This document shows positions 2,072-63,598 of a stretch of DNA of 64,000 nucleotides, one piece after another. The first letter of the stretch is position 1. The number at the start of each line of letters is the position of its first letter. Position numbers and translations under genes: made by a program. This DNA comes from Planctomycetota bacterium. GTDB lineage: Bacteria > Planctomycetota > UBA11346. Location of the stretch: assembly GCA_038213805.1 (NCBI GenBank), contig JBBQSO010000019.1:1114-65113 (forward strand), written 5' to 3'. The notes under the pieces were generated by a model, which was given only the letters and a program-made list of their open reading frames with translations, had not been told where the DNA came from and did not search any database.

Positions 2072-3574
2072 ATGACCGCCTACGTCATCAGGCGCCTGCT
2101 GCTGATGATCCCGACCTTCATCGGGATCCTGATCATCAACTTCGCGGTACTGCGCCTGCAGGGGCCGACCCTGGTCGACCAGATGCAGGCCGGCGTGGGC
2201 AAGGGTGGCGGTGAGGGCGGACCTGGCGAGCGCAAGGCGCAGGGGGCGGCCAAGGATGTCGAGAACTACATAGACCGCTTCCGCAGATCCGGGCTGGACC
2301 TGCCAGCGCTGGTCAATGTGCGCGGCTTTACCGGGCGCGACGAAGTCGTCGCACGACTGCGCGACAGCGCGGGCGACGGGCCAAACCGCGAGCGGCCCAG
2401 CGTGCGCAACGGCATCGAGAAGAATCTCTGGCTGGGCGGGCCGCAGCTGGTCGAGCCGCTGCTGGCGGTCGTCGCCGACGACAGTCTCGCCACCCTGCAC
2501 GCGCCGGCGGTGCTGGCCCTGACCTACTGCGCTTATGTCACGGTGACGGCACGCGACCTGGCGCGCATGCCGGCGGAGCGGCTCAACCAGATCCAGGAGC
2601 GCAACGAACGCCTGCGCAACGACCGCATCCGCTACACCAACACCGCCAAGGGCTTCGCCACCGTCGATTCGGAGGCCGCGGCCAAGCGCGCTGACCTGCT
2701 CGCCCTGTTCGCCATTCCCGGCACACAGGCGGAATTCACGGCGGCGCGCGCCACGCGCTGGAGCGACGCGCTGCTGCGCACCGGCTTCTGCGACTTCATG
2801 GCCAAGCTCTTCACCGCCCAACTCTATTCAGAATCCCGCAAGGACTACGTGTTCTCGGTCATCGCTGACCGCTGGTACGTGACCTTCTGGCTCAACACCA
2901 TCTCGATCGTCATCGCCTGGGCCGGCTCGATCCTGCTCGGCATCCGTTCGGCGCGGCGCAGCGGTTCGCTCGAAGACCGGGTGACGACCAGCGGGCTGTT
3001 CCTGGCCTGGTCGATGCCGTCGATGTTCTTCGGGACGCTGTTGCTGTACTACTTCTGCACCGACACGAGTGGTTCGAAGGCCTGGTTCCCAAACCGCGGG
3101 CTGTCCAGCGATGGCTCGATGTGGCTGCCCACCGGGGAGTATCTGCTGGATCTACTCTGGCACGCCTTCCTGCCGCTGGTGGTGCTCAGTTACAACAGCT
3201 TCACCGCGCTCTCGCGTTACATGCGCGCCAACCTGCTTGAGCAGCTCGATGCCGACTACGTGCGCAGCGCGCGCGCCAAAGGCTGCGACGACGACGCTGT
3301 GGTCTACCGGCATGCCGTCGGCAACAGCCTGATCACCATGATCACGCTCGGCGGCGGCCTGCTCGCCGACCTGTTTTCGGGCGCGCTGATTGTCGAACTG
3401 ATCTTCAGCATCCCCGGTCTGGGCTGGCTGATGCTCGACGCCGCCATCCAGTCGGACGGTCCACTGCTGATGGGCTCGACGGTCATCACCGTGTCCCTGC
3501 TGCTGATGGGCATCCTCATCTCCGACCTGCTCTATGCGGTCGTCGACCCGCGCATCCGGGGGCGTTATGCCTGA
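2072..3574 (+). CDS. ABC transporter permease (OppB/DppB-like), with a large inserted soluble segment
   Basis: 500 aa. The C-terminal EAA-loop region and the tail 'SIPGLGWLMLDAAIQSDGPLLMGSTVITVSLLLMGILISDLLYAVVDPRIR' are hallmark OppB/DppB. There is an unusual ~150-aa hydrophilic insertion after TM1. Confidence 0.8.
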   Translation: MTAYVIRRLLLMIPTFIGILIINFAVLRLQGPTLVDQMQAGVGKGGGEGGPGERKAQGAAKDVENYIDRFRRSGLDLPALVNVRGFTGRDEVVARLRDSAGDGPNRERPSVRNGIEKNLWLGGPQLVEPLLAVVADDSLATLHAPAVLALTYCAYVTVTARDLARMPAERLNQIQERNERLRNDRIRYTNTAKGFATVDSEAAAKRADLLALFAIPGTQAEFTAARATRWSDALLRTGFCDFMAKLFTAQLYSESRKDYVFSVIADRWYVTFWLNTISIVIAWAGSILLGIRSARRSGSLEDRVTTSGLFLAWSMPSMFFGTLLLYYFCTDTSGSKAWFPNRGLSSDGSMWLPTGEYLLDLLWHAFLPLVVLSYNSFTALSRYMRANLLEQLDADYVRSARAKGCDDDAVVYRHAVGNSLITMITLGGGLLADLFSGALIVELIFSIPGLGWLMLDAAIQSDGPLLMGSTVITVSLLLMGILISDLLYAVVDPRIRGRYA

Positions 3575-4796
3575 GCAGGGCGGATCCCCGGCACAACTCG
3601 CGTGGTCCCGGTTCCTGGCGCGGCGCAGCTCCCGCTACGGACTGGGCATGCTCGCCGTGATCGTGCTGACCGGGATCTACGCGCCGTTCCTCTCCAACGA
3701 GGTGGCGCTGGTGTGGTGGGACCAGGACGGGCTGCGTTTCCCGCTGATCTGGGACCTCTTCAACCGGCGCATCTACGAGAAGATCTACGACGTCTACTTC
3801 AACGTCCTGGCGCTGCTGCTGCCGATCCTCGCGGTGGTGTTCGCCGTGCTGGGCCGGCGCATCGGTGTGACCGGCCGGTTAAAGATCGGAGTCGCGTCCC
3901 TGGCGCTGATCGGCACCTTCTGCTTGCTGCCGGTGTTCCCGGGGCATGGGGCCCGCGTCGCGGTCTGGGACCACCGCCCCTTCACCGCGTCCGGCATCCA
4001 GGAATGGAGCGCATTACCCGAGGCCAAACGCCCCTTCGCCGTGTTCACCCCGGTCAAGCACCGCTTCGACGCCACCTACCCCGGCGCAATATTACAGTCG
4101 CCTGGAACCATCAATCCGGTCACCGGCGGGCACTATTGGCTCGGCACCGACGCAGGCGGGCACGATGTCCTGACCCACCTGTTTTTCGGCGCGCGCATCA
4201 GCCTGACGGTGGGGCTGGTCGCGGCCGGGTTGTCGTTCCTCATAGGACTGGTGGTCGGCGCGGTCAGCGGCTATTTCGGCGGCTGGGTCGACCTGGTCCT
4301 GCAGCGCATCGTCGAAATCATGATGTGCTTCCCCACCTTCATCCTCATCCTGACCGTGGTGGCGATGTACAGCCGCGACATCTTCTTCATCATGGCCGTG
4401 ATCGGTCTCACCAGCTGGGCCGGAACGGCGCGCCTGGTGCGCGGCGAATTCCTGGCGCATGCGGTGCGCGACTACGTCACCGCCGTCGAAGCCCTCGGCC
4501 TGCCGCGCTGGCGCATCATGTTCCGGCACATCCTGCCCAATGCGATCGCGCCGCTGCTGATCTCGCTGACCTTCGGCATCGCCGGCTCGGTGGGCGCGGA
4601 AAGCGCGCTCGCCTTCGTCGGCCTCGGCGACCCCACCGCACCCAGCTGGGGCGTCCTCCTCGAGCAGGGCCGCGAGAACATCCGCTACCCGTGGCTGATC
4701 TACACGCCGGGACTCGCGATCTTCACGATCGTCATGACGTTGAATCTGCTGGGCAACAATCTGCGCGAAGCGATTGATCCGAAGCAGCGGCAATGA
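3567..4796 (+). CDS. ABC transporter permease (OppC/DppC-like)
   Basis: ATG 3567 overlaps the upstream stop (ATGCCTGA). Contains 'HYWLGTDAGGHDVLTHLFFGARISL...GYFGGWVDLVLQRIVEIMMCFPTFILIL', typical of OppC. The stop TGA at 4794-4796 is the first unit of the heptamer array. Confidence 0.8.
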   Translation: MPEQGGSPAQLAWSRFLARRSSRYGLGMLAVIVLTGIYAPFLSNEVALVWWDQDGLRFPLIWDLFNRRIYEKIYDVYFNVLALLLPILAVVFAVLGRRIGVTGRLKIGVASLALIGTFCLLPVFPGHGARVAVWDHRPFTASGIQEWSALPEAKRPFAVFTPVKHRFDATYPGAILQSPGTINPVTGGHYWLGTDAGGHDVLTHLFFGARISLTVGLVAAGLSFLIGLVVGAVSGYFGGWVDLVLQRIVEIMMCFPTFILILTVVAMYSRDIFFIMAVIGLTSWAGTARLVRGEFLAHAVRDYVTAVEALGLPRWRIMFRHILPNAIAPLLISLTFGIAGSVGAESALAFVGLGDPTAPSWGVLLEQGRENIRYPWLIYTPGLAIFTIVMTLNLLGNNLREAIDPKQRQ

Positions 4797-4834
4797 TGGC
4801 TGATGGCTGATGGCTGATGGCTGATGGCTGATGG
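4794..4834. repeat. Heptanucleotide tandem array (TGATGGC)x~6, left arm of heptamer-bounded element 1
   Basis: Direct reading of the sequence. The array supplies the stop codon of the upstream permease gene and contains TGA in all three forward frames. Confidence 0.9.
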
Positions 4835-4886: not shown

Positions 4887-5240
4887 ATGGCCAAGACTTA
4901 CCGGGAACTTCTCGTGTGGCAGGAGGCAATGGCACTAGCAAAAGGGATCTATGTCGTGACCAAGGTGTTTCCCAAAGAGGAGCGATTCGGCCTTATATCG
5001 CAAATGCGTCGCGCTGCCGTATCCATCCCGAGCAATATCGCCGAAGGACATGGCAAATCGAGTGCCGCCCATTTCCTCAGCTACCTCGGCCATGCGCGCG
5101 GATCGCTTTTCGAACTCGAGACACAGGCCGAACTCAGCTGCGAATTCGGCTTCATCTCTGCAGCGGACATGGTGGAATTATCTCTCATGACCACCCGCCT
5201 GGGACGAATGCTAAGTCGATTCATGGAAACTCAGGAATGA
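4887..5240 (+). CDS. Four-helix-bundle protein of the '23S rRNA intervening-sequence protein' family (same fold family as DGR accessory protein Avd)
   Basis: 117 aa, 'ELLVWQEAMALAKGIYVVTKVFPKEERFGLISQMRRAAVSIPSNIAEGHGKSSAAHFLSYLGHARGSLFELETQ' matches the family signature. GC about 52% against about 70% in the flanks. Bounded by inverted heptamer arrays. Confidence 0.7.
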   Translation: MAKTYRELLVWQEAMALAKGIYVVTKVFPKEERFGLISQMRRAAVSIPSNIAEGHGKSSAAHFLSYLGHARGSLFELETQAELSCEFGFISAADMVELSLMTTRLGRMLSRFMETQE

Positions 5241-5243
5241 CGC

Positions 5244-6131
5244 ATGCCCCCTGAACCCACTGCGCCATCAGCCATCAGCCATCAGCCATCAGCCCTCCTG
5301 CAGTTCGACGACCTGCACGTCACCTTCGCACTGCGCGACCGCAACGTCGAGGCAGTCAAGGGCATCAGCTTCTCGGTATCCGCCGGCGAGGTCGTCGCCC
5401 TGGTCGGCGAATCCGGCTCCGGCAAATCAGTCTCCTCCATGTCCGTGCTGCGCCTCCTCCAGGAACCGCCCGCAACCTACCCGCGCGGCCGCATCCTGTG
5501 GAAGGGCGAGGACATCCTGCACATGGACAAGGCGCGCCTGCGCCGGCTGCGTGGTGGCGAGGCGGGGATGATTTTCCAGGAGCCGATGACCGCGCTCAAC
5601 CCGACCTGGACCTGCGGGGACCAGGTCGACGAGGCACTTGCCCTGCACACCGCGCTCGACCAGAAGGCGCGCCGCGCGCGCACCGTCGAACTGTTCCGCC
5701 TGGTCGGCATCCCGCAGCCCGAGACGCGCGCCGACCAATACCCGCACGAGCTTTCTGGCGGCATGCGTCAGCGCGTCTGCATCAGCATGGCGCTGGCCTG
5801 CCGGCCGCAGCTGCTGATCGCCGACGAACCCACCACGGCGCTCGACGTCACCATCCAGGCGCAAATCCTTGAGCTGATCAAGCGCCTGCAGCGCGAGCAG
5901 GGCCTGGCGGTGCTGTTCATCACCCACGACCTGGGCGTGGTCGCCGAGCTCGCCGACCGCGTGGTGTTGATGCGCCATGGCGCGATCGTCGAGCAGGGTC
6001 CCGTAAAGGAGATCTTCACCAATCCCCAGCACCCCTACACCAAGGGACTGCTCGCGTGCCGGCCGCGCTTGGGCGTGCGGCGGGATCGGTTGCCGACGGT
6101 AGATGACTTCATGGCGGGGGCGGGGGGCTGA
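5244..6131 (+). CDS. ABC transporter ATP-binding protein (OppD/DppD-like)
   Basis: Walker A 'GESGSGKS', signature 'LSGGMRQR', Walker B '[12 protein letters not shown]' and the C-terminal oligopeptide-ABC tail. The first ~18 codons are encoded by the repeat element, so the true N-terminus is uncertain. Confidence 0.85.
5264..5294. repeat. Heptanucleotide tandem array (GCCATCA)x~4.5, right arm of element 1 (inverted relative to 4794..4834)
   Basis: Direct reading. Lies inside the 5' end of the ATPase ORF, where it is translated as '[10 protein letters not shown]'. Confidence 0.9.
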
Positions 6132-25242: not shown

Positions 25243-25403
25243 GGTACTAGAGTGTGCGTTTATCCGTGCCGGCAAGCGCCGGGGCGATGCAAGTGGATGG
25301 CCGCCAGATGCAAGTGGATGGCCGCCAGCGGCGCACCGGCCCCAAGAGGTTGGGATTCCGATGACCATGTACACCTCGCTGCGGGCGCGTCGTGCAGAGC
25401 GAC

Positions 25404-26919: not shown

Positions 26920-27600
26920 TCACGCGAACAGCCGCGTCCCGACGCGGATGTCGGTGGCACCCTCCGCGATGGCGAGGCGAAAATCCTGCGACATGCCCAT
27001 GCTCAGGCGCGCCAGACCGAGTTCGCCCGCGAGGACGCGCAGGGCAGCGAATGCGGCGCGGATCTCCCCCTCCGCAACCCCCTCTGGTGCCATCGTCATC
27101 AAGCCCACCGGGTCGAGCGCGGACTCGGCGCGCACCGCGGCGACGAAGCCCGCAACCTCGCCTGGAGCCAGGCCGGCCTTGCTGACCTCGCCCGCGGTAT
27201 TGACCTGGATGAACACCGGCAGGCGCCGGCCGTGCGCGGTGCAGGCGCGGGCCAAACGCCCGATGTGGTCCGTTGCGCACAGGCTGTGCAGCACTGCACA
27301 GTCAGCGGCGACGCCGGCAAGTTGGCGGCCCTGGACGCGACCGATGGCGTGGAAGCGGGCGCCCAGCGGCGCGTGCAGAAGCATCTCTGCAAGATGCTCC
27401 AGGCGGTTCTCGCCAAAGTCGGCGATGCCGGCGGCGGCGAGTGCGGCCAGCACCTCGGGCCCCTGACTCTTGGTCACCGCGATCAGCCGCACCGAGGCCG
27501 CATCGCGGCCAGAGTGCACGCAGGCCGCAGCGATCTCGCTGCGCACCGCGGCGACGTTGGCCACGATGCGCGCGACAAGGTCCGGGGGGCAGGCCAGCAT
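26920..27600 (-). CDS. yggS: YggS-family pyridoxal-phosphate homeostasis protein
   Basis: 226 aa. 'RLIAVTKSQ' PLP-lysine motif and 'DFGENRLEHL'. Overall length and C-terminal 'VGTRLF' are typical. Confidence 0.8.
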   Translation of the reverse strand: MLACPPDLVARIVANVAAVRSEIAAACVHSGRDAASVRLIAVTKSQGPEVLAALAAAGIADFGENRLEHLAEMLLHAPLGARFHAIGRVQGRQLAGVAADCAVLHSLCATDHIGRLARACTAHGRRLPVFIQVNTAGEVSKAGLAPGEVAGFVAAVRAESALDPVGLMTMAPEGVAEGEIRAAFAALRVLAGELGLARLSMGMSQDFRLAIAEGATDIRVGTRLFA

Positions 27601-27692
27601 GGTACGACGTTCAGGGGCTTAGGAGGCAATGCAATGCCTCCGCATCCGGGGATTCCGCGCGTAGCCGGAACGGGCTCGGGAGGGTCGGGGAC

Positions 27693-27835
27693 GCTGATGG
27701 CTGATGGCTGATGGCTCCGTATCCGTCGTGGATCGCTCTGGTCTGCAACGCAGACCTTGTCATCACTATCCTGATGCCGGCGCACCGCGCCGGCTTCAGG
27801 ATCAGCCATCAGCCATCAGCCATCAGCCATCAGCC
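27693..27835. repeat. Heptamer-bounded element 2: (GCTGATG)x3 - 84-bp spacer with hairpin - (CAGCCAT)x5
   Basis: Direct reading. Arms at 27693-27716 and 27801-27835. The spacer palindrome is gtctgcaacgcagac. The element abuts the stop of the HEAT-repeat gene. Confidence 0.85.
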
Positions 27836-27839
27836 CCCC

Positions 27840-29444
27840 CTACGGCACCGGGTCCTTGCGCGGCTTCGCCACCTGCTTCTTCGGCTTGGGTGCCGGCTGG
27901 GGGTCGGCAGCGGGATCGGGCTCGCTGGTGGCGGTGTCGGACTGGCCACCCGCCTCGGGGTCATCGGGCAGTGCGATCTTCTCGCCGGTCGCCCAGGTCC
28001 GCCAGGCGGCGATGCCCTTGCCACGCTCCTCGTCACTGCCGCGCGAGTCGTAGCCGACATCCTTTTTGGAGATGGTCTTGAGCAGATTGTTGCTCTTGCG
28101 GCGTACGATCGCGTCGGGTGAGGCCAGGCCGCCGATCAGCACGGGCACGGCCTCCTTGCCCTTGCCGAGCAAATTGGATTCCGCGGTCTGCGCGACGTTG
28201 CCCTCGATGCTCGAAAGCTGGACCACCCACACCGTGGCAGGATCGACCGGCCCGCTGGCCGCCTTGGCCTGGGCCTCCTTGGCCTCGCTGGGGTCGAGCG
28301 GGAAGATGAACGACGATCCCTTTTCCTTCCACCACTTCTCGAGCTGCGCAACGATCTTGCCCTTGGTGTCAGCGGGCATCTCGACGTCGTACGACCAGTC
28401 GCTGTTGCTCAGGCGCGAGATCATCGAGATAGCGTCGGCGTTCACCGCGTGGTCGTCGACCTTGAGCAATTTGATGAGTACCGGCACGATGGCCTTGTCC
28501 TTGAGGTCGTAGAGGCCTTTGGCTGCCTCGATGGCGATCTTGGGGTCGGCGTTGCGCAGCTGCTCCGCCAGCACCGTCTGCTCCGAAGTATCGTGATTGA
28601 GGTCCCACCAGGCCTTGACCCGGGCAGCGGTCAGGCCGTCCTTGGGTAGCAGCGTGATCTGCTGGGCGCCGCCGGTCGCGGCGCGACGCACGCCCTCGTT
28701 GGCGTGGTCCATCAATTCGATCAGGCGCGGCACCACGCGGCGGTCGCGGAAGTAGGCGACGGTATAGGCGAAAGTCTCGAGGTCCTCGGGATCGGTGACG
28801 CGTGCGCTGGCCGCGACCATAAAGCCGAGCAGCGGACGCACCGCACGCAGCTGGTGCTTCTTGATCAGCTCAAGGACGATCTGGCAGGGACCGTAGAGGT
28901 CCGTGAAGTCGTCGCGCAGCAGGGCGGCACACAGGCACGGCACCGCCGCCGGGCGGCAGTCCTCGCGCATTAGGGTGCGCACCGCCGAGTCCATATCGTC
29001 GCTGTCGTTGCGCGCGCGGTTCATGCGCTCGACCTGGCCCTTCACGAAATCGCTGCCGTCGGGGATCTTCGGCGGCTTGAGGTCCCACTGGATCTGCTGC
29101 GCGGTCGGGCCGGGTCCAGCGGCGTGGCGTTCCGGGGACGAGCTACCGGGCTTGTCGCCCTTGGCGTGGCCGGCGCCGGCGGGGCCGTTGGCCGCCACCC
29201 AGCGCTCGCCGACGCGCACCTGGCCCATCTTGGCCCGCGCCGCCTCGTGGTCCTTGTCCAACTCGATGACCTTGCCGTACAGCTGGCGCGCCCGGGTCGG
29301 CTTGTTGTGGCCCTCGCACCATTCGGCAAATGCATAGACCGAGTCGGCGTTGCCCATGTCGGTGCGCTTCTGGACATCCTCCATGGACTCCTCGGCGGCG
29401 GCCATGGCGATGGTCATCAGGATCAGGATTAGGACACGGAACAT
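27840..29444 (-). CDS. Secreted HEAT/armadillo-like repeat protein with a basic Pro/Lys-rich C-terminal tail
   Basis: Start at 'MFRVLILILMTIAMAAA' (signal peptide). Repeated 'AI(V/E)..AA.(A/K)L..L.D' helical motifs. Tail 'PQPAPKPKKQVAKPRKDPVP'. Confidence 0.45.
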   Translation of the reverse strand: MFRVLILILMTIAMAAAEESMEDVQKRTDMGNADSVYAFAEWCEGHNKPTRARQLYGKVIELDKDHEAARAKMGQVRVGERWVAANGPAGAGHAKGDKPGSSSPERHAAGPGPTAQQIQWDLKPPKIPDGSDFVKGQVERMNRARNDSDDMDSAVRTLMREDCRPAAVPCLCAALLRDDFTDLYGPCQIVLELIKKHQLRAVRPLLGFMVAASARVTDPEDLETFAYTVAYFRDRRVVPRLIELMDHANEGVRRAATGGAQQITLLPKDGLTAARVKAWWDLNHDTSEQTVLAEQLRNADPKIAIEAAKGLYDLKDKAIVPVLIKLLKVDDHAVNADAISMISRLSNSDWSYDVEMPADTKGKIVAQLEKWWKEKGSSFIFPLDPSEAKEAQAKAASGPVDPATVWVVQLSSIEGNVAQTAESNLLGKGKEAVPVLIGGLASPDAIVRRKSNNLLKTISKKDVGYDSRGSDEERGKGIAAWRTWATGEKIALPDDPEAGGQSDTATSEPDPAADPQPAPKPKKQVAKPRKDPVP

Positions 29445-43147: not shown

Positions 43148-43159
43148 CTTTACTGTGAG

Positions 43160-43316
43160 ACAGCCGGACAGCCCCAAAGCCAGGCAGCCGGACAGCCGGA
43201 CAGCTGGATAGAACAAGAGGAACGGAGGAACGGAGGAGAGGCTGGGTGGCGATACGGTAAGCCGGAGTCTGACTTTTCGCTCTCCGTTCCTCGTGTTTTA
43301 TTAGGCTGTCCATCCG
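43160..43316. repeat. Composite palindromic intergenic element, family B (core CAGCCGGA(C/T)AG..GGATAGAACAAGAGGAACGGAGG with an inverted partner)
   Basis: Direct reading. Tandem 'cagccggacagcc' and 'ggaacggagga' units, with an imperfect inverted arm 'ctccgttcctcgtgttttattaggctgtcc'. Related to the element at 59445..59648. Confidence 0.7.
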
Positions 43317-43420: not shown

Positions 43421-44533
43421 ATGCGCGCCTTCATCATCATCATCATCTTCTTCATCGTCGCGGTCGGTGGTATGCTCGCACGGCTCGCCGCCGAGAGCGA
43501 TCCGCAGACTTTGGCGACCGGTGCCAAGGCTCCCGACTTCACTCTGCCCGGTGTGGACGGCAAGAACCACAGCCTGACCGATTACGCGTCGGCCAAGGTC
43601 CTGGTCGTGGTGTTCACCTCCAACCATTGCCCGACCGCCCAGGAATACGAAGAACGCCTCAAGGCCATCACCGCCGACTACCGGGGGAAGAGCGTGGCGC
43701 TGGTGGCGATCAACCCGAACAGCGAAAAGGCGCTGCGCCTCGACGAGCTCGGCTACACCGATCTCAACGACTCGCTGCCAGAGATGAAGCTGCGCGCCGA
43801 CTATCTGCACTTCAACTTCCCGTACCTCTACGACGGCGCGACCCAGGCGGTATCGCGGGCCTACGGACCGAGCTCGACGCCGCATGCCTTCGTCTTCGAT
43901 GCCGCGCGGATCCTGCGCTACGAAGGGCGCATCGACGACAACGAGCGCGAGGCGGTGGTCAAGATCAAGGACCTGCGCGAGGCCATCGATGCGGTCCTCG
44001 CCGGCACGCCGGTGGCGACGCCGCACACGCCGTCGCTGGGCTGCTCGACCAAGTGGCTCGATAAACAGGATGAGGCAAAGGCCTACCTTGCCGAAATCGA
44101 GAAGGAGCCGGTGACCCTCGCCCTGGCCGGCGACAAGACTCTGGCCGAGCTGATGGCGAACACGGGCGGCAAGCTGCGCCTGATAAACTGCTGGGGACTG
44201 ACCTGCGGCCCATGCGTGCGCGAGCTGCCGGAGCTGGTCGACATCGAGCGCTGGTACCGCGGCCGCGACTTCGAACTGGTGACGGTCTCGACCGACTTTC
44301 CCGAGGACCAGCCGAAGACGCTGGCCATGCTCCAGAAAGTCCATGCTTCGGGCCGCAACCTGCTCTTCGCCGAGGCTGACAAGTACAAGCTGCTCGCCGC
44401 GCTGGACAAGGAATGGGACGGGGCGCTACCCTACAGCGTGCTGATCGCGCCAGGCGGTAAGGTGCTGTACCGCCACACCGGCGCGGTCGATCCGCTGGCG
44501 CTGCGACGGGTGATCCTCAAGAATCTTAAGTGA
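43421..44533 (+). CDS. Exported/anchored protein with two thioredoxin-like (redoxin/TlpA-like) domains
   Basis: Domain 1 'VLVVVFTSNHCPTAQEY' (redoxin-like, single Cys). Domain 2 'LINCWGLTCGPCVRELPEL' (CGPC). N-terminal hydrophobic anchor with an (ATC)5 poly-Ile run. Confidence 0.65.
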   Translation: MRAFIIIIIFFIVAVGGMLARLAAESDPQTLATGAKAPDFTLPGVDGKNHSLTDYASAKVLVVVFTSNHCPTAQEYEERLKAITADYRGKSVALVAINPNSEKALRLDELGYTDLNDSLPEMKLRADYLHFNFPYLYDGATQAVSRAYGPSSTPHAFVFDAARILRYEGRIDDNEREAVVKIKDLREAIDAVLAGTPVATPHTPSLGCSTKWLDKQDEAKAYLAEIEKEPVTLALAGDKTLAELMANTGGKLRLINCWGLTCGPCVRELPELVDIERWYRGRDFELVTVSTDFPEDQPKTLAMLQKVHASGRNLLFAEADKYKLLAALDKEWDGALPYSVLIAPGGKVLYRHTGAVDPLALRRVILKNLK

Positions 44534-44535
44534 GA

Positions 44536-44686
44536 GGTCCGGGATTCCGGAAGTCCGGCAGTCGGACAGCCCCGTTTCCTCACGCACTACCGGACCGCGC
44601 TTGATCGCACCGGCACGGGCGCGCGCAGCGTCACCACACCCACGCAACGAGACTTCCGGAGTTCCGGACTCCGGACTCCCGGACCA
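44536..44686. repeat. Composite palindromic element, family A (arms built from GTCCGGAA(G/T)TCCGG units, ~90-bp spacer)
   Basis: Left arm ggtccgggattccggaagtccggcagtcggacagcc. Right arm gacttccggagttccggactccggactcccggacc, an imperfect inverted copy. Sits between convergent genes. Confidence 0.8.
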
Positions 44687-46962: not shown

Positions 46963-47817
46963 ATGTTGAAGCTCGAAGTCTTGAATACCGCCTTCAAGGG
47001 CAAGCAGTTCCGTTTCAAGGAAGGCCTTGTGGTCGGGAGCGCCGAGGGCTGCGCCATCCGCGCCCAGCACACCGGGATGCAGGCCGAGCACGCCCGCTTC
47101 TACACTGACAACAACCACTCGATGGTCGAGATCGCCTGCAAGGAGGCCCATCTCTACGTCAACGGCCGGGACGTCGTGCGCAGCGAGCTGCGCCACCAGG
47201 ATGAGATCACCATCGGCCCCCTGCGCCTGCGCGTGGTCGACGACTCGCGGGTCAGTTCGGGGGCGATGCAGCTCGACCAGCTGCTGAGCGAGATGGAGGG
47301 CCAGGAGGCCTCTGACACCCTCTACGACTTCGCCCGCGAAGATCTCTTCTACCTGTCCACCAAGGACCCGGCCCTGCGCACGCGGATCAACTTCGTGATC
47401 CCGAGCAAGGACAAGTTCATCGATCAGGCCCAGGTCTTCCTCGCCCGCCTGGTCAAGGGCGGCACCATGGACGAGCAGCAGGTCGACTCCTTCATGACCT
47501 GCGCCAAGGAACTGATCCTCAACGCCCACCGCCACGGCCACACCTACGATGAGAGCAAGCGCATCACCCTGCGCTTCCGCGACGCCGGCGACCGCATCTC
47601 GCTGACCATCGTTGATGAGGGCAAGGGCTTCGACCACCGCGGCCTGCTCGCCAAGGTCAACGAGAAGGACGCCGCCCAGGCGGCGCGCGAACGCTACCAG
47701 GCCGGTGGTTTCGGCGGCCTCGGTTTCAAGCTGATCACCAAGCTGGCCAAGGATCTGACCTATAACGAGTCGGGCAACCAGGTGACGTTCACGGTGATGA
47801 AGCAGCCGGCGGAGTGA
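46963..47817 (+). CDS. FHA domain fused to a GHKL/HATPase_c (RsbW/SpoIIAB-type anti-sigma serine-kinase-like) domain
   Basis: FHA '[56 protein letters not shown]...[10 protein letters not shown]'. ATPase '[11 protein letters not shown]...[13 protein letters not shown]...[15 protein letters not shown]' (N, G1, G2 boxes). No HisKA/DHp domain. Confidence 0.6.
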
Positions 47818-47829
47818 GCGGCGGGCCGG

Positions 47830-47986
47830 CTGATGCCAGCCTGGCTGATGGCTGATGGCTGATGGCTGATGGCCGGCCGCTGGTGGAATTCCGGGTGACA
47901 ACCAACTTCAGCACGGCCACTCACCGGCGCACAGCGCCGGTGAGTCAGCCATCAGCTATCAGCCATCAGCCATCAGCTATCAGCCG
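47830..47986. repeat. Heptamer-bounded element 3: (GCTGATG)x~5 - ~70-bp spacer with hairpin - (CAGCCAT/CAGCTAT)x~6
   Basis: Direct reading. Arms at 47830-47873 and 47947-47986. The spacer palindrome is caccggcgcacagcgccggtg. It begins 12 nt after the FHA-GHKL stop and lies ~45 nt upstream of tRNA-Leu. Confidence 0.85.
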
Positions 47987-48030: not shown

Positions 48031-48115
48031 GCGGGCATGGCGGAACTGGCAGACGCGCGGGATTTAGGTTCCCGTACCGCAAGGTGTGTGGGTTCGAGTC
48101 CCTCTGTCCGCACCA
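48031..48115 (+). tRNA. tRNA-Leu (anticodon UAG), type II with long variable arm
   Basis: Acceptor GCGGGCA/TGTCCGC, 3-bp D-stem, anticodon loop TTTAGGT, long variable arm, T-loop TTCGAGT, encoded CCA. There is one T:T mismatch in the T-stem. Confidence 0.7.
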
Positions 48116-51200: not shown

Positions 51201-52342
51201 TGCTGCACGGCTTGTTCGCCACGATCTACGCACCCTGGTGGTTCCGCCTGCTCGGCGCGCGCATCGGCCGCAACACCGAGATCTCGACCGCCACCGGCGT
51301 CACCCCCGATCTGCTGGTGCTGGGCGACGACAGCTTCGTCGCCGACGGTGCGATGCTGGGCGACGAGCCGGTGCGTGGTGGCATCTTCACGCTTTCCGGA
51401 ACGCGCGTCGGCTCGCGCAGCTTCATCGGCAATGGCGCGTGCGTTCCGGACGGCGCCGATATCCCCAGCGACGTGCTTATCGGCGTGCAGACCCTCACCC
51501 CGGCCAACGCGCGCCTGGCCTCGGGCCAGACCTGGATGGGCAGCCCGCCGATGATCCTGCCGGCGCGCGAGGCGCCCCTCGACTTTCCCGCACACCTGAC
51601 CTTCCGTCCGTCGCCGGCGCGACGGCTGGCGCGAGGCAGCGTCGAGCTGCTGCGCATCGTCGTGCCGCTGGCGTTCATCATCGCCTTCGGCTACGTGGCG
51701 GTGCGCCTGATCATGCCCTATTTCGAAGAGGAGGAGTGGCTGGCGGGCGTGGTGGCGCTCGCGGTTGCCGGCTTCGCCTTCGGCGCCATCGCGCTGGTCG
51801 CCGTGCTGGCGGCGAAGTGGCTGCTGATCGGCCGCTACCGGCCGGGCTCGGCGCCGATGTGGACACTGTTCGTATGGCTCAGCGAGGCGGTGACCACGCT
51901 CTACGAGTCGCTGGCGGTGCCCAACTTCCTCGCCTTCCTGCGCGGCACGCCGCTGCTGCCCTGGGCGCTGCGCCTGTTCGGCACGCGCATCGGCCGCGGC
52001 GCCTGGTTGAACACCACCGACATCACCGAGTTCGACTGCGTCGAGATCGGTGCCGGCGCCGAACTCAACGACGACTGCGGCCCGCAGACCCACCTCTTCG
52101 AGGACCGCGTGATGAAGATCGGCCGGGTACGGATCGGCAACGGCGCGGTGATCGGCGTGCGCAGCACCATCCTCTATGACAGCGAGGTCGGAGCGCGCGT
52201 GCGGCTGGGCCCCCTCACCCTGGTGTCAAAAGGGGAGCGGCTGCCGGAAGGCACCGCCTGGGAAGGGTCGCCTGCGTCACCTGCGGAGGGTGCCGGTCCG
52301 GAATTCCGGAAGTCCGAAAGTCCGGATGTCGGACGGCTCTGA
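48287..52342 (+). CDS. Pls/PosA-family single-module non-ribosomal peptide synthetase (adenylation - thiolation - three tandem membrane-embedded condensation-like domains); putative homopoly(amino acid) synthetase
   Basis: A-domain motifs: 'LSYGALD', 'YVIYTSGSTGRPKG', 'FDMSFEEI', 'NTYGPTEATV', 'GELCIFGPGLASGYL', 'YRTGDMV', 'GRSDDQLKVRGFRVEPGEIE', 'LPAYMVPS', 'SGKVDRKAL'. PCP 'DFFSDLGGHSLTTARL'. There follow three repeats of a TM pair plus a ~200-aa hexapeptide-like soluble domain carrying 'LLGARIGR' motifs, which is the ε-poly-L-lysine-synthetase-type architecture. The start could also be 48242. The last ~15 codons are encoded by a family-A repeat. Confidence 0.75.
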   Translation: MILAGAHRPDLLRAETLPDLFEASARAHPEHPALIAGRRTLSYGALDTAAGRIAHRLLAAGHASPGRIIGLWLPRGADLLTAQLGIAKAGCAWLPFADDAPAQRVAECLRDAGAVALITDAALAASLPAGLEPAPLVVDGLLAELPPGTLPLRREGLGGEHPAYVIYTSGSTGRPKGIVVPQRAICHFLRAENALLGVTRDDRVYQGFSVSFDMSFEEIWISWLVGATLWLAPKTVTTDPDALLAALTGQRITVLHAVPSLVALLPALPACLRLLNLGGEACPQALADRLTVPGRRVFNTYGPTEATVSATFAELRNGAPVTIGGPLPNYGLAIVDEALQPVPAGAPGELCIFGPGLASGYLGRPDLTAERYPQGPFAALPGIERLYRTGDMVQLDGEGALRFLGRSDDQLKVRGFRVEPGEIEEALTAQPGVAAAAVVMRAEAAGEGLVAFLVAAGAADATPTDATERETALRRTLAEALPAYMVPSRFVTVAALPRLPSGKVDRKALRDQVLPALPAAAGGDKPRTLAEASLFAALAPLFPGRALRRGDDFFSDLGGHSLTTARLVSALRADHGFPQAAVRDIYLHRRLDSIAAALEAAGGRVQASAPGPSAWARAHACRRQRWACGLVQTMLLPIPVCVHLATWLAPFFAYHYLTGDEEDSVQLAALLATLVFLAVQVLSFVIAVAAKWLVLGRLRPGRYPLWGVTYLRWWFGEVMAHAAPVYLLNGTPLYRIYLRLLGARIGRDVAIAGVEVAAPDQLEIGDNVAIGTAVSIANARVEDGFLVVGRVVIGAGALVDSYAVLEGDTAVGAGATLGQLSALRAGAKVPAGECWEGAPARYVGADETGVEPQFTPSMPRRIFELAFYPLASAVISAIFFLPVFPAFMVIDAIDARWLDTFDSDTHTLIAAGVYLVLALPAAAVLVVITLFAAALLRRAACPRLEPGSWPIHGAVYYGKWVAAQIQESSLHLLHGLFATIYAPWWFRLLGARIGRNTEISTATGVTPDLLVLGDDSFVADGAMLGDEPVRGGIFTLSGTRVGSRSFIGNGACVPDGADIPSDVLIGVQTLTPANARLASGQTWMGSPPMILPAREAPLDFPAHLTFRPSPARRLARGSVELLRIVVPLAFIIAFGYVAVRLIMPYFEEEEWLAGVVALAVAGFAFGAIALVAVLAAKWLLIGRYRPGSAPMWTLFVWLSEAVTTLYESLAVPNFLAFLRGTPLLPWALRLFGTRIGRGAWLNTTDITEFDCVEIGAGAELNDDCGPQTHLFEDRVMKIGRVRIGNGAVIGVRSTILYDSEVGARVRLGPLTLVSKGERLPEGTAWEGSPASPAEGAGPEFRKSESPDVGRL

Positions 52343-52452
52343 CTCCCCGCCGTGCGAAGCGTGCACGACGGCGCGCGGGGATGGGCGCAGCAGCGCGACC
52401 ATCCCCGCACCACGAGACTTCCGGACCTCCGGACCCCGGACTTCCGGACTGC
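52295..52452. repeat. Composite palindromic element, family A (TCCGGAAGTCCG arms with a central GGGGATGG...CCATCCCC palindrome)
   Basis: Left arm ggtccggaattccggaagtccgaaagtccggatgtcggac. Right arm gacttccggacctccggaccccggacttccggac. Lies between the convergent pls-like and dksA-like genes. Confidence 0.8.
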
Positions 52453-52505
52453 CCGCAAACGCGACAACCCCGGCCGATGGCCGGGGTTTTCGCGTTTGCG
52501 GACCC

Positions 52506-53296: not shown

Positions 53297-54394
53297 GTGA
53301 ATAACGCTGAAGTCATCGGTGGAGTGCCGTTGGTATCCGTCATCGGGACGCCCCGGACCATGGGCGAGCGCCTCGGGGCGCGACTCAAGCCGCGCCTTCA
53401 GGTGTTGTCCCAGTATCTCGCCGAGCAGCTCTGCACGCTGTCCGCGTCGAATGGGCAGGCGCTCAATCCCGAACGGCTGCGCGACCTCATCCGCCCAAGC
53501 ATCGCGGTCATCGCCCGCCACGAACCGTCGCTGTGGATGGAATTCGAGGCGATGAGCCAGGCCAGCGACGTGGCGGTCGAGGACCTGCTGGTCATTCACG
53601 GCTACAGCGACCTGCTCAGCTTCATGCAGTGCCAGCTGCCGCCGCGGCCCAGCACTTTCGTGTGCCTCGACTCCAGCCATACCGCGGATGGCAAACCGTG
53701 CATGGCCTTCGCCTGGTACCTCGATCCCGCGCTGCTGCCCTACCTGACGCTGATGCGCCGCATCCCCTCGCATGGACCCGCCACGCTCACCCTGACGCTG
53801 GCCGGCCTGCACCCGGTCGCCGGCCTGTCCGAGGCCGGGGTCGCGGTGGCCTGCAACGAGTTGCGCGTGCGCGACGGCGCCTGCGGGCATTTCACCAGCC
53901 ACCTGCTGTCGTCGATGCTCACCGCGCCCAGCCTGGAGGACGCGCTGCGCCGCGGCCTGGCCGCGCCGCGCCACGGCGGCGGCGCGGTGCACGGCCTGGC
54001 CGCGAACGGCGAGCGCTTCAGCCTCGAGCTGAGTGGCCAACAGGCCACGCGCCTGGCCGATCCGCTGGCAGCGGCGCCGCGCGTGCACACCAACCACCCG
54101 CTCGACGAGCAGATCATCCCCACCGTGGTGCTGGTGGAGGCGACCAGCAAGAGCCGCCTGGAAGACACCGCCAACCTCGCCGTCGGCAGCACCGGCACCA
54201 CGCCGCATACCATCGGCGAGTGGTTCGGTCTGACCCGTGAGCCGGGCAGCACGCGCATCGCGCTGGCGCGCACCGATGCCGAGGGCGAGCACAGCACCGA
54301 CGCGGTCGTGGTGATCGTGCTCTGCCCGGGGGCGGGCGAGATCCACCTGCGTCGCAGCGGCATGCCCGGGCGCATGGAGACCATCAGGCTGTGA
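53297..54394 (+). CDS. Hypothetical protein, possibly Ntn-hydrolase/C45-like
   Basis: 365 aa. 'FVCLDSSHTADGKPCMAFAWYLDP' weakly resembles the C45 acyltransferase/hydrolase nucleophile region. Otherwise unassigned. Confidence 0.3.
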   Translation: MNNAEVIGGVPLVSVIGTPRTMGERLGARLKPRLQVLSQYLAEQLCTLSASNGQALNPERLRDLIRPSIAVIARHEPSLWMEFEAMSQASDVAVEDLLVIHGYSDLLSFMQCQLPPRPSTFVCLDSSHTADGKPCMAFAWYLDPALLPYLTLMRRIPSHGPATLTLTLAGLHPVAGLSEAGVAVACNELRVRDGACGHFTSHLLSSMLTAPSLEDALRRGLAAPRHGGGAVHGLAANGERFSLELSGQQATRLADPLAAAPRVHTNHPLDEQIIPTVVLVEATSKSRLEDTANLAVGSTGTTPHTIGEWFGLTREPGSTRIALARTDAEGEHSTDAVVVIVLCPGAGEIHLRRSGMPGRMETIRL

Positions 54395-54396
54395 CT

Positions 54397-54438
54397 GGGG
54401 GTCCGGAAGTTCCGGAGTCCGGAAGTCCGGAAGTCGGG
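54397..54438. repeat. Family A repeat fragment (GTCCGGAAGTTCCGGAGTCCGGAAGTCCGGAAGTCGGGAC)
   Basis: Direct reading. A single arm without an obvious inverted partner. Lies in the 5' region of the lpxK ORF. Confidence 0.7.
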
Positions 54439-54474
54439 ACGGGCGAGGCGCGGCAGTGGACCACGCCGCCGCTG

Positions 54475-58497: not shown

Positions 58498-59442
58498 ATG
58501 GCCGACCACGCCGCCGACATCATTCACACTGCCAGCATGCGCAGCCGCTCCCTCGCCTGCGTCGGTCTCGACCCGCGCCCGGCGCTGCTGCCGCCGGCGC
58601 TGGTCGCCGCCGCCTTGCGCGAACACGGCGACACCCAGCGCGCCGTCGCCGCCGCCTTCCTGACCTTCAACCGCGGCCTGCTCGCGGCGGTCGCCGGCGC
58701 CTGCGCCGCAGTCAAGCCGCAGGCGGCCTGCTACGAGGCCTACGGCGCCGCCGGTGTGCAATGCCTGGCCGAAACCGTCGCCGAAGCGCGGCGCCTGGCC
58801 ATCCCGGTGATCATGGACGCCAAGCGCGGCGACATCGGCTCGACCGCGGAGCACTACCAGCAGGCCTACCTCGGCGCTGCGCCCGGCCTGGGTGGCGCTG
58901 CGCTGCGCGGCATGGACGCCGACTGGCTGACCATCAACGGCTACCTCGGTTCTGACGGCGTGAAGCCCTTCCTGGGCGCGCCGGGCACCGGGGTGTTCGT
59001 GCTGGTGAAGACCAGCAATCCCTCGTCGGGCGACCTCCAGGACGTGCCGCTCGCCGCCGGCGTGCAGCGCAGTGGCGCGGCAGAGCCGGCCGCGGCCGCG
59101 ATGGAGCTGATGGCCCAGCTGGTTGCCGAATGGGGCCGTGGGCGCACCGGTCGCTGCGGCCTGAACGATGTCGGCGCCGTGGTCGGCGCCACCTACCCTG
59201 ACCAGGCGCGGCGCCTGCGCCGGCTGATGCCGGAGACGCTGTTCCTGGTGCCTGGCTACGGCGCCCAGGGCGGCAGCGCCGCCGACGCCCTCGCCGGCGC
59301 GCGCAACGACGGCGGTGGCGTACTGATCAACTCCAGCCGCGGCATCATTGCCGCGTGGCAGAAGCCGATGGCCAGCGACTGGGCGGCCGCGGCGCGCGGT
59401 GCGCTCGACGCGATGAACCGCGACCTGGCGGCGGCTCTCTGA
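58498..59442 (+). CDS. pyrF: Orotidine 5'-phosphate decarboxylase, type 2 (long form)
   Basis: 'LACVGLDPRP', 'IPVIMDAKRGDIGSTAEHY', 'DWLTINGYLGSDGVKPF', 'LFLVPGYGAQGG' are the subfamily-2 OMP decarboxylase motifs. Confidence 0.8.
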   Translation: MADHAADIIHTASMRSRSLACVGLDPRPALLPPALVAAALREHGDTQRAVAAAFLTFNRGLLAAVAGACAAVKPQAACYEAYGAAGVQCLAETVAEARRLAIPVIMDAKRGDIGSTAEHYQQAYLGAAPGLGGAALRGMDADWLTINGYLGSDGVKPFLGAPGTGVFVLVKTSNPSSGDLQDVPLAAGVQRSGAAEPAAAAMELMAQLVAEWGRGRTGRCGLNDVGAVVGATYPDQARRLRRLMPETLFLVPGYGAQGGSAADALAGARNDGGGVLINSSRGIIAAWQKPMASDWAAAARGALDAMNRDLAAAL

Positions 59443-59444
59443 TC

Positions 59445-59648
59445 CGGTCGGGACGGAACCGGACGGCCGGATAGAACAGGAGCCGCGGAGACGCAGAGAT
59501 CGGCGGAGGACGGCCGCTCGAAGGTTTGCGGTCGTTGCTGTGCCGTGGAGAGCGCACGGGACCCGGCCGCCATCGCCTGCTCAAGGCTCTGCGTCTCCGC
59601 GCCTCTTGTTCTATCCGGCTGTCGGCAGTAGGCAGTCGGAAGTCGGAC
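59445..59648. repeat. Composite palindromic element, family B (inverted CCGGATAGAACA(G/A)GAG...GGAGACGCAGAG arms, ~90-bp spacer)
   Basis: Left arm ccggatagaacaggagccgcggagacgcagag. Right arm ctctgcgtctccgcgcctcttgttctatccgg, followed by a gtcggaagtcggac tail that links it to family A. Lies between pyrF and convergent ilvE. Confidence 0.8.
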
Positions 59649-60563
59649 TCAGACCGGAGTGAGCCACCCGCGGTACGCCGGATTGCGGCCGTAGACCGCG
59701 TCCTCGTAGGCCTGCTGCAGGCGCGCGGTGAGCGGGCCGCGGTTGCCGTCGCCAATCACGCGCTTGTCGATTGAGCGCACGTAGGTGACCTGACAGCCGG
59801 TGCCGACCAGGAAGACCTCGTCGGCGACGTAGAGTTCGGTGCGCGCCACCGGGCGCTCGACCACCGCGATGCCGAGCTCCTTGGCGAGTTCGAAGATGCC
59901 GCGACGGGTGATGCCCTCAAGAATGTCGGCGGTGCGATCGGGCGTGTGCAGCGCGCCGTCGCGCAGCAGGAAGATGTTCTCGGCCGAACCCTCGCAGACC
60001 TGGCCACGGTCGTTGAGGAAGATCGCCTCGTCGTAGCCGTTGAGCAGCGCCTCGCTCTTGGCCAGGGCACTGTTGAGATAGCCGCCGGTGGCCTTGGTGC
60101 GGGTCGGGATGCTGTTGTCCGACAGCCGCCGCCACGACGACACGCACACGTTCAGGCCGCGCTCGCCGGTGAAGTAGCTGTCCAGCATCTGCAGGTAGCA
60201 CATGTAGCCGTCGGGCACGTTCGCCAGCACCGGGCCCAGGGTGGTGCCTTTCTTGTAGACCACCGGGCGCAGGTAGATGTTGCCTTTGGGCGCGTTGACG
60301 CGCACCGCCTCGGTGGCGATGGCGCACATCTCGTCAACGCTCGGCGCCTGCATCAGCAACAGGCCGGCATTGCGCGACAGGCGCTGGAAGTGCTCGCGCA
60401 GGAAGAGCAGGTTCACGCGCTGGCCATCCCAGTAGCCGCGGATGCCCTCGAAGCAGCCGGTGCCGTATTGCAGCGCGTGGGTATTGATCGGTACCACGCA
60501 CTCGCTCAGCGGTTTCCAGACGCCGTTGAGGTAGGCCAGGGTGTTGTTGGCTGAGTCGGTCAC
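59649..60563 (-). CDS. ilvE: Branched-chain amino acid aminotransferase
   Basis: GTG start at 'VTDSANNTLAYLNGVWKP'. 'GTGCFEGIRGY', 'NIYLRP', 'TRTKATGGYLNSALAK', and the catalytic Lys in the fold-type IV context. 304 aa. Confidence 0.85.
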   Translation of the reverse strand: MTDSANNTLAYLNGVWKPLSECVVPINTHALQYGTGCFEGIRGYWDGQRVNLLFLREHFQRLSRNAGLLLMQAPSVDEMCAIATEAVRVNAPKGNIYLRPVVYKKGTTLGPVLANVPDGYMCYLQMLDSYFTGERGLNVCVSSWRRLSDNSIPTRTKATGGYLNSALAKSEALLNGYDEAIFLNDRGQVCEGSAENIFLLRDGALHTPDRTADILEGITRRGIFELAKELGIAVVERPVARTELYVADEVFLVGTGCQVTYVRSIDKRVIGDGNRGPLTARLQQAYEDAVYGRNPAYRGWLTPV

Positions 60564-63345: not shown

Positions 63346-63522
63346 GCAAGACCACTTGAAAGCGCGTATCCGGACCGCCGGGACGCCAGAGACCCTCGCA
63401 GCAATGCGGGGGTCAAACGTTTGACGACGCACGGCATGGCGAACCATGCCGTGCGTCGTTGTTCTTAGCCTGAGTTGGAGTTCCGCCTGCGCGGCCGCGC
63501 CTGCAGGCCGCGGTTGGCCGCT

Positions 63523-63567
63523 GGAAACGAAAAAGCCTACCGCATCGCGGTAGGCTTTTTCGTTTCC
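63523..63567. terminator. Bidirectional rho-independent terminator
   Basis: Perfect palindrome ggaaacgaaaaaGCCTACCGCatcGCGGTAGGCtttttcgtttcc. The GC stem is flanked by an A-tract and a T-tract, and it sits between convergent genes. Confidence 0.8.
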
Positions 63568-63598
63568 AGCGTCTTGGCGCGCTGGTGCGCGCTGGATG

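Follow-up and report, generated by a model that had tools for sequence, protein, structure and literature searches.

Three hairpin cassettes at cistron boundaries

The 64,000-nt stretch of DNA analysed here, which we call the window (contig JBBQSO010000019.1 of the Planctomycetota bacterium assembly GCA_038213805.1), carries three copies of an element in which an array of the heptamer GATGGCT is followed by an inverted array of the same unit, AGCCATC. Named homologues of its YggS and OppD proteins point to the Planctomycetota. We consider it rather probable that these elements are hairpin cassettes of the intervening sequence (IVS) type located outside ribosomal RNA (rRNA). Each has a long stem of two inverted 7-nt arrays surrounding either a gene of the S23p/IVP family (copy 1) or, in copies 2 and 3, just a small core with internal structure, and they occupy tiny spacers between cistrons, which is why they abut stop and start codons. 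More generally, the S23p gene is usually found within a stem whose arms are inverted arrays of a heptamer or sometimes an octamer; such cassettes are common outside rRNA, where they lie at cistron junctions, and carrier genomes also hold ORF-less hairpins built of the same unit.

An earlier note, made from the sequence alone, had drawn the three (GATGGCT)n…(AGCCATC)n pairs. Direct reading and Tandem Repeats Finder recovered each of them at its place, with arms of the same inverted heptamer and with the forward array preceding its reverse complement in every copy. The period-7 arrays are perfect or near-perfect, and the stems measure 24–41 bp, with arms that are 83–100% complementary. A two-unit 14-mer, allowed up to two mismatches, matched the window 25 times against an expectation of 0.64, and none of 100 shuffled sequences gave as many matches.

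The arms of copy 1, which lies between opp-type ABC permease and ATPase genes, have been absorbed into their neighbours. The 5′ arm (4794–4834, plus strand, (TGATGGC)×5.9) opens on the TGA that terminates the oppC-like permease gene (3534–4796), which is the first TGA of the array (4794–4796). The cargo gene (4887–5240, plus strand) encodes a 117-aa four-helix-bundle protein of the S23p/IVP family (PF05635 and TIGR02436). Only 3 nt past its stop, still within the hairpin loop, the oppD-like ATPase gene begins (start and first codons at 5244–5263, plus strand), and the 3′ arm (5264–5294, plus strand, (GCCATCA)×4.4) is read in frame as ten N-terminal OppD residues. Apart from the oppD start inside the loop, no canonical start lies in frame ahead of the conserved LLQFDDL motif; OppD homologues nearly all begin M-[S/T]-E-P-LLQFDDL. 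For annotation, this means that array-encoded stop codons and N-termini are genuine in copy 1.

The other two copies are smaller (143–157 nt). Copy 2 lies between HEAT-repeat and YggS-family genes on the minus strand and ends 4 nt from the stop codon of the HEAT gene (27840–27842), as the earlier note had it. The arm that follows this stop and a GGGGGG run (27801–27835, (ATCAGCC)×5.0 on the plus strand) is the 5′ arm on the minus strand, and the arm at 27693–27716 ((GCTGATG)×3.4 on the plus strand) would form the 3′ side of the hairpin in a transcript that includes HEAT and yggS. The 84-nt core between them (27717–27800, minus strand) contains two internal hairpins, including CCGGCGCACCGCGCCGG at 27777–27793. 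Copy 3 stands between an FHA-GHKL gene and a tRNA-Leu gene, and as drawn it begins 12 nt past the FHA-GHKL stop (47815–47817). Its 5′ arm (47830–47873, plus strand) consists of a degenerate unit followed by (TGGCTGA)×4.6, the array called by Tandem Repeats Finder being 47842–47873; the 71-nt core (47874–47944, plus strand) contains the hairpin CCGGCGCACAGCGCCGG at 47924–47940; and the 3′ arm (47945–47985, plus strand, (TCAGCCA)×5.9) includes two TCAGCTA units, equivalent to AGCTATC variants, and lies 45 nt upstream of tRNA-Leu (48031–48115).

Each of the two small copies folds as a single long stem that has hairpins inside it (−113.8 kcal/mol, z = −12.3 for copy 2; −117.6 kcal/mol, z = −10.4 for copy 3), in agreement with the internal palindromic hairpin proposed for them earlier. 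They have in common a GC hairpin, CCGGCGCAC[C/A]GCGCCGG, 4–7 nt from the right arm. Apart from this 17-nt hairpin, comparison of the three window cores with the core of a relative (L115) and with those of an octamer-armed family described below revealed no homology. Neither small core contains an ORF or an ORF remnant, no known Rfam family was detected at the elements and no rRNA in the window, and no promoter consensus was found at copy 2. The family with its paired inverted heptamer arms is real and not due to chance, and it lies close against gene boundaries, as the earlier note had stressed.

The cargo of copy 1 and its likeness to rRNA intervening sequences

The S23p family was named from ORFs within 23S rRNA intervening sequences, and this 'four helix bundle protein' family (TIGR02436/S23p) is very widespread. 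The cargo protein of copy 1 matches PF05635 ('23S rRNA-intervening sequence protein') with E = 6e-36 and also TIGR02436 ('four helix bundle protein'); its closest solved structure is 2GSC, which is XCC0516 of Xanthomonas campestris. The nearest IVP among 5.8 billion database proteins is at most 61% identical to it, and PADLOC returned no defence-system match. We know of no catalytic activity of the IVP protein. The cargo is in addition a distant four-helix-bundle relative of Avd, an accessory protein of diversity-generating retroelements that forms a pentameric four-helix bundle and binds nucleic acid and reverse transcriptase. The match to NF033474 is weak (E = 3e-6; 27.5 bits versus an equivalog cut-off of 80 bits), PF22296 is matched by many homologues, and neither a reverse transcriptase nor template/variable repeats lie near the cargo gene, whose neighbours are opp genes.

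In Coxiella burnetii, the 23S rRNA IVS has a 28-bp terminal inverted-repeat stem that is cut by RNase III and an S23p ORF in its loop, and tandem heptameric GACAGAT repeats, in strain-variable number, precede the ORF (PMC4990558). Copy 1, with a stem, heptamers and an S23p ORF between the cistrons of an mRNA operon, has every part of the Coxiella IVS except its location. What the window elements have in common with the 23S IVSs of Coxiella and Leptospira is an inverted-repeat stem (here of at least two turns), a PF05635 ORF in the loop (copy 1), heptamer repeats of variable number (here in the arms) and a sporadic, selfish-like distribution. Small IVS forms that lack an ORF also occur, as in Salmonella and Campylobacter. 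Unlike the rRNA IVSs, the window elements have arms that are long pure arrays (3–6 units on both sides) and are absorbed into adjoining coding sequence.

Alleles with and without a cassette between oppC and oppD

Inspection of this junction in relatives (denoted, like the other loci below, by L numbers) showed that copy 1 can be there in one genome and missing from another close to it. In the nearest relative, L119 (OppD 98% identical in amino acids, flanks about 90% identical in nucleotides), the site is empty: the junction reads CAG TGA TGGGAACCCC ATG AGC GAA GCG CCT CTC CTC CAG and has 22 nt in the place of 495 nt in the window, and OppD starts MSEAPLLQFDDL, without the ten array-encoded residues of the window protein. 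The junctions of L120 and L121 are likewise empty. In L117, a more distant relative, the site is occupied by an IVP gene (OppD 77%, OppC 62% and IVP 59% identical to the window); the arms use the GATGGCT unit as in the window, the oppC stop falls within the 5′ array (ADG* is array-encoded), and the OppD N-terminus carries the same 28-nt in-frame 3′ arm. L122, likewise more distant, is also occupied by an IVP gene (59% identical), which has (TGGCTGC)n on its upstream side and (GCAGCCA)n on its downstream side. Neither TGA nor ATG occurs in the L122 arms, and oppC there ends at its own stop 8 nt upstream.

In both L117 and L122, DNA homology runs unbroken from oppC into the cargo gene. This continuity, together with the absence of any database IVP closer than 61%, makes the cassette look orthologous in the window, L117 and L122 lineages. 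Between relatives that are fairly close, these alignments show the cassette being gained or lost whole. In each of the three occupied alleles, the oppD ATG and four to seven codons lie inside the loop, between the cargo and the 3′ arm, an arrangement that a single simple insertion would not easily explain. No direct repeat indicative of a target-site duplication was found at any of the three copies or in the occupied/empty comparison.

The arms have changed in a compensatory manner, from TGGCTGA/TCAGCCA in the window to TGGCTGC/GCAGCCA in L122, throughout both arrays. Because this one-base change of unit occurs on both arms and over the whole arrays, the complementarity of the arms is actively kept. 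The stop/start property, in turn, is not the conserved feature, because the L122 arms hold neither codon. Contigs of close relatives break in or beside the arrays (L116, a 980-nt contig; L122, whose contig ends at 3403), and metagenome assemblies probably under-represent these elements.

Turnover at the HEAT–yggS site

The HEAT–yggS spacer that holds copy 2 was aligned (alignment A1) with those of L115 and L113, two relatives with the same gene order. Conservation is seen in the flanks, that is, in the HEAT C-terminus and in the yggS leader, CGCGGAATCCCC…GCATTGCATTGCC…CCTGAACGTC…ATG. The window has five and three arm units around its 84-nt core, L115 about 1.5 and about 1.5, and L113 none and about one; the core of copy 2 is not conserved in the relatives. 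In L115, G7-CTGATGGCTGG directly follows the stop and CCAGCCATCAGCCAGCCAGCC lies about 180 nt further on, with an unrelated core rich in other palindromes between them. In L113 the 5′ arm is absent and only a GGCCATC remnant is left. The site has long been occupied, with arms whose unit number shifts like a simple repeat and a core that turns over. A REP-like (repetitive extragenic palindrome) sequence of L113 and L115, GGTCGAGCGCCAGCTCGACC, does not form a family in the window. At L115 (10001–10801), the public call of the YggS homologue (266 aa) has its start within the hairpin element and is overextended by about 40 codons relative to its relatives (226 aa), an annotation artefact due to the element.

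IVP genes and period-7 arms in other bacteria

Searching metagenomes with aligned IVP proteins (alignment A2) yielded 80 loci (L124–L203), in which 74 IVP genes had enough flanking sequence for analysis. An inverted repeat between the upstream and downstream flanks reached a score of at least 12 at 52 of the 74 genes versus 7 controls, and of at least 16 at 32 genes versus 1 control. The arm period in the 40 strongest cassettes was 7 in 31 and 8 in 7, and the G-rich arm lay upstream of the gene in 33 cases versus 5; the downstream arm starts a median of 14.5 nt past the IVP stop. Tandem Repeats Finder detected period-7/14 arrays in the upstream flanks of 51 of 74 genes and the downstream flanks of 40 of 74, versus 2 of 55 and 1 of 53 control regions located 670–900 nt away, and the median is 4.3 units. 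None of the 80 IVP loci lies in rRNA. The arm unit varies from locus to locus (AGTGACG, GAGGATT, AGGGATC, AGTAGCT and others). Because IVP protein identity correlates with arm-unit similarity (Mantel r = −0.48, p < 0.0005), gene and arms descend together. A further 47 arrays of period 7, 8, 14 or 16 lie outside the cassettes in these loci, a density of about one per 2.8 kb over 132 kb, and several of them are inverted pairs of other units (e.g. L200 318–343/435–466 and L137 2882–2912/2933–2963).

Finished genomes and a further locus agree with this. In Nostoc edaphicum it lies between nrdB and nrdA, and its (AGTAGGG)n/(TCCCTAC)n arms touch both genes; in Calothrix it lies between an ABC-ATPase gene and the partner HlyD gene; in Gemmatirosa the cassette has octamer arms; and at locus L123 the gene sits between pheS and pheT. 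Plasmid matches for the IVP protein are mostly from Nostocales, the classic taxa of short tandemly repeated repetitive (STRR) heptamers, and the cyanobacterial STRR heptamers are themselves comparable repeats. According to a supplementary table in Rehm et al. (2015, PMC4692102), repeat #15 of the GGGAATC family in X. campestris lies 6 nt past bccP and overlies the region where XCC0516 starts. As XCC0516 is the protein of structure 2GSC, this repeat meets an S23p gene, a link that Rehm et al. did not draw despite the entry in their own table.

GATGGCT and other heptamer arrays at large

A scan of genome contigs with (GATGGCT)3, which informs on breadth and not on frequency, returned at least 112 loci from at least 112 species spread over many phyla; in Gemmatimonadota, a single genome contributed several contigs. 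Among the matches listed, an inverted partner lies within a few hundred nucleotides in about one third of the loci, in both topologies, with about 23 cases of (AGCCATC)n…(GATGGCT)n versus about 11 of the opposite order. Exact arrays of at least three units in 854 kb of scanned loci numbered 191 for period 7, versus 4, 9, 11 and 1 for periods 5, 6, 8 and 9, and 64 of the 191 use other units, such as GGGAATC and CCCCAGT. An IVP gene nearly always has arrays and most arrays have no such gene in cis, so that the association runs from gene to array and not the reverse. A literature search on the GATGGCT heptamer itself returned nothing relevant.

Several GATGGCT loci were distinctive in their own right. 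At L050 (6732–7101, a Gemmatimonadaceae metagenome-assembled genome, MAG), (AGCCATC)n and (GATGGCT)n surround a complete tRNA gene together with the hairpin that follows it, so the cargo between arms is not confined to IVP genes. Composite arms of several different serial heptamers, for example GATGGCT then GGGTATT then GATTCGCT, are mirrored around 0.5–1.1 kb of cargo at L024 (4392–5646, a Chloroflexi MAG) and L060 (3429–4039, Moorena), the L024 cargo including a 264-codon ORF without a family. Solo GATGGCT arrays were seen in Gemmatimonadaceae MAGs in the gap between rpsJ and rplC (L042, 7791–7814) and 8 nt upstream of the dnaJ start (L009, 6299–6329), and thus inside highly expressed, essential operons.

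Comparable arrays have been described elsewhere. The GGGAATC arrays of Xanthomonas are 89–93% intergenic, lie on average 28 nt past the upstream ORF and form 70–75 convergent inverted pairs per genome (PMC4692102). Like the window elements, these GGGAATC/GGGGAYT simple sequence repeats (SSRs) of Xanthomonas and Nostoc are intergenic heptamers of about four units that form inverted pairs, lie near where the upstream ORF ends and differ from one relative to the next (PMC4692102). The window arrays agree with them in unit copies, in location near the upstream ORF end, in inverted pairing and, at the HEAT–yggS site, in varying unit number; they differ in that the GATGGCT unit has no G-quadruplex potential and belongs to another phylum, the Planctomycetota. 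The TAACTGA direct repeats of Beggiatoaceae, Cyanobacteria and Bacteroidetes, for which a role as the binding site of a translational regulator has been proposed (MacGregor 2015, PMC4679880), are also arrays of 2–6 units at gene boundaries in distant phyla with stop codons in the unit, but nearly all are direct, they stand just upstream of start codons and they carry no cargo. Also comparable are the REPs and the hairpins that they form (REPINs), with their REP-associated tyrosine transposases (RAYTs): these are abundant intergenic hairpin repeats after stop codons and provide a model of a protein-coding master with short ORF-less copies. REPs, however, are fixed imperfect palindromes of 20–35 nt and not tandem arrays, and RAYT is a Y1 transposase, whereas the window arms are arrays of variable length and the linked gene encodes a four-helix-bundle protein.

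Other repeat-armed hairpins in the window

The window contains at least two further families of repeat-armed hairpins, again a few nucleotides past stop codons. An octamer family has inverted (GTCCGGAA)n…(TTCCGGAC)n arms around cores of about 90 nt (44537–44684 and 52296–52450). Its members start 4 nt past a stop (44531–44533) or overlap the end of an ORF resembling a non-ribosomal peptide synthetase gene, whose last residues are array-encoded; a solo forward array of this unit (54401–54439) lies a few nucleotides past the TGA at 54392–54394. No IVP gene with octamer arms was found in the window. A third kind of hairpin has 30–37 nt inverted repeats sharing GGATAGAACA(A/G)GAG (43159–43311 and 59447–59650), with tandem arrays outside the repeats (GACAGCCG×6 at 43159–43208 and GTCGGAA×4 at 59621–59647); the element at 59447–59650 begins 4 nt past the TGA at 59441–59443. 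Two perfect or near-perfect inverted repeats of 23–25 nt with 3-nt loops and T/A runs (52453–52501 and 63519–63571) resemble bidirectional terminators, and that at 52453–52501 directly follows the octamer element at 52296–52450. At 25286–25328 a 21-nt unit is perfectly duplicated in tandem (GATGCAAGTGGATGGCCGCCA×2).

Discussion

If the three elements are IVS-type cassettes, as we think probable, the arms of the transcript would pair into a perfect duplex of 24–41 bp, and RNase III would cleave this duplex as it does in rRNA of the same architecture. A processing or structure site is predicted at the cistron boundary because RNase III has been shown by experiment to excise this architecture from 23S rRNA, and processing of the stems in the window is proposed here by that analogy. 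Arm length changes in the manner of repeat slippage, with the two arms kept complementary, and the elements probably survive where they are least harmful. Most likely, then, they are persistent selfish or neutral passengers that would create a point of RNA processing or structure where cistrons meet.

Several observations weigh against this reading. The site that defines an IVS, helices 25 and 45 of 23S rRNA, is not that of the window elements, which are flanked by oppC/oppD, HEAT/yggS and FHA-GHKL/tRNA-Leu and so lie between protein cistrons or beside a tRNA gene; we therefore file them as IVS-like variants outside rRNA and not as strict IVS members. Copies 2 and 3 have only the arm unit in common with copy 1, and among the matches listed an IVP gene stood beside a GATGGCT array in just 1 of 112 loci (L104). 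Arm mismatches on the sense strand of 47 cassettes comprised 38 G·U and 37 A·C, and because G·U is not in excess there is no sign of selection for pairing at the RNA level over the DNA level. In copy 1, cleavage of the stem would be costly, since the 3′ arm lies downstream of the oppD start codon and the cut would sever oppD from its start. The pattern of occupied and empty sites, moreover, could result from loss and not from gain, as the cassette looks orthologous in three lineages.

One alternative is that the arrays are ordinary heptanucleotide SSRs produced by polymerase slippage, with pairing and boundary position as by-products and no identity as elements. In keeping with it, heptamers outnumber every other class of long SSR in many bacteria (Mrazek 2007, cited by PMC4679880), period 7 dominates the 854 kb scanned, unit number differs between the orthologous sites of the window, L115 and L113, and solo arrays are common in other genomes. 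Slippage alone, however, does not yield inverted arrays of the same unit around a cargo, and it leaves unexplained the change of unit on both arms in L122, the association with one gene family (51 of 74 versus 2 of 55) and the 33:5 bias toward an upstream G-rich arm, and we hold this alternative to be improbable. We regard as quite improbable that the elements are transcription terminators or attenuators at gene 3′ ends, as might be suggested by strong GC-rich stems directly past stop codons and by the mean distance of 28 nt past the upstream ORF in Xanthomonas (PMC4692102). The stems lack a U-tract, no T-run follows any arm and no terminator-like site was detected in 27400–28000; copy 1 is part of an operon, and the gene that follows it there needs to be expressed; the octamer element at 52296–52450 is followed by a separate terminator-like hairpin; and at L032 a canonical terminator comes before the element.

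The earlier note had proposed a novel MITE (miniature inverted-repeat transposable element) or a 'translational insulator', and neither proposal survived the comparisons. A MITE, that is, a non-autonomous transposon with heptamer arrays as terminal inverted repeats and its transposase elsewhere, would be consistent with inverted termini, a length of 143–157 nt, several intergenic copies in one genome and the occupied/empty polymorphism of copy 1. It is nevertheless highly improbable: the termini vary in length, none of the copies has a target-site duplication, there is no conserved core, and the cargo is not a transposase and has no PADLOC match. An oppD start and first codons inside the element fit a single cut-and-paste insertion poorly, and the site orthologous to copy 2 has retained its arms and swapped its core. 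An insulator, in which arrays are selected to stop incoming frames and to offer ATGs for re-initiation, draws on a correct observation, as every frame of the forward array does meet both a TGA and an ATG within 21 nt, the oppC stop is array-encoded in copy 1 and L117, and the reverse array stays open whatever the frame and encodes the OppD N-terminus. Any 7-nt unit that contains these codons gives this result arithmetically, and indeed any stop-holding unit whose length is not a multiple of 3 behaves so. The property is not conserved in the orthologous L122 cassette, whose TGGCTGC unit holds neither codon; copies 2 and 3 come after the genes' own stop codons; and arm units around IVP genes are highly diverse. 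In the (AGCCATC)n…(GATGGCT)n topology, which is the commoner one elsewhere among the matches listed, an incoming ORF would not be stopped on entry. Thus, stopping and possible re-initiation of an ORF stand as a description of the window arrays but not as a principle on which the elements are organised, and the insulator is the least probable of these explanations; stops in all frames are incidental to the GATGGCT unit and not a matter of design. Nor is the element of a new kind, since inverted heptamer arrays just past ORFs were known from the GGGAATC repeats of Xanthomonas (PMC4692102) and S23p-associated heptamer stems from Coxiella (PMC4990558).

Returning to IVS-type cassettes, a wider and more doubtful proposal is that the S23p/IVP protein acts in trans as a partner that binds heptamer hairpins, drives their spread and is the cause of the bacterial excess of heptamers; we hold this to be possible but unlikely. 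A pentameric ring would bind the repeats with 7 nt per subunit, in arrays of about four to five units, which, if true, would explain why the period is 7. Cassettes that carry the gene would be autonomous and ORF-less hairpins of the same unit would be their dependants, as with RAYTs and REPINs, and the scheme would account for the STRR repeats of Nostocales, the GGGAATC arrays of Xanthomonas and the GATGGCT arrays of Planctomycetota, Gemmatimonadota and Acidobacteriota.

The window elements extend the phenomenon of intergenic heptamer SSRs to a new unit and a new phylum. What is apparently new is the link between IVSs, heptamer SSRs and the S23p/TIGR02436 family; no paper connecting the first two to this family was found in a literature coverage that was incomplete. 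Because the cassettes have the build of an IVS, one of them with an S23p gene, and are placed between protein genes, the excess of 7-base repeats becomes tied to the S23p family. Our analysis brings three old puzzles into one frame: the excess of heptamer SSRs in bacteria, the nature and spread of the intervening sequences of rRNA, and the role of the S23p/TIGR02436 family.

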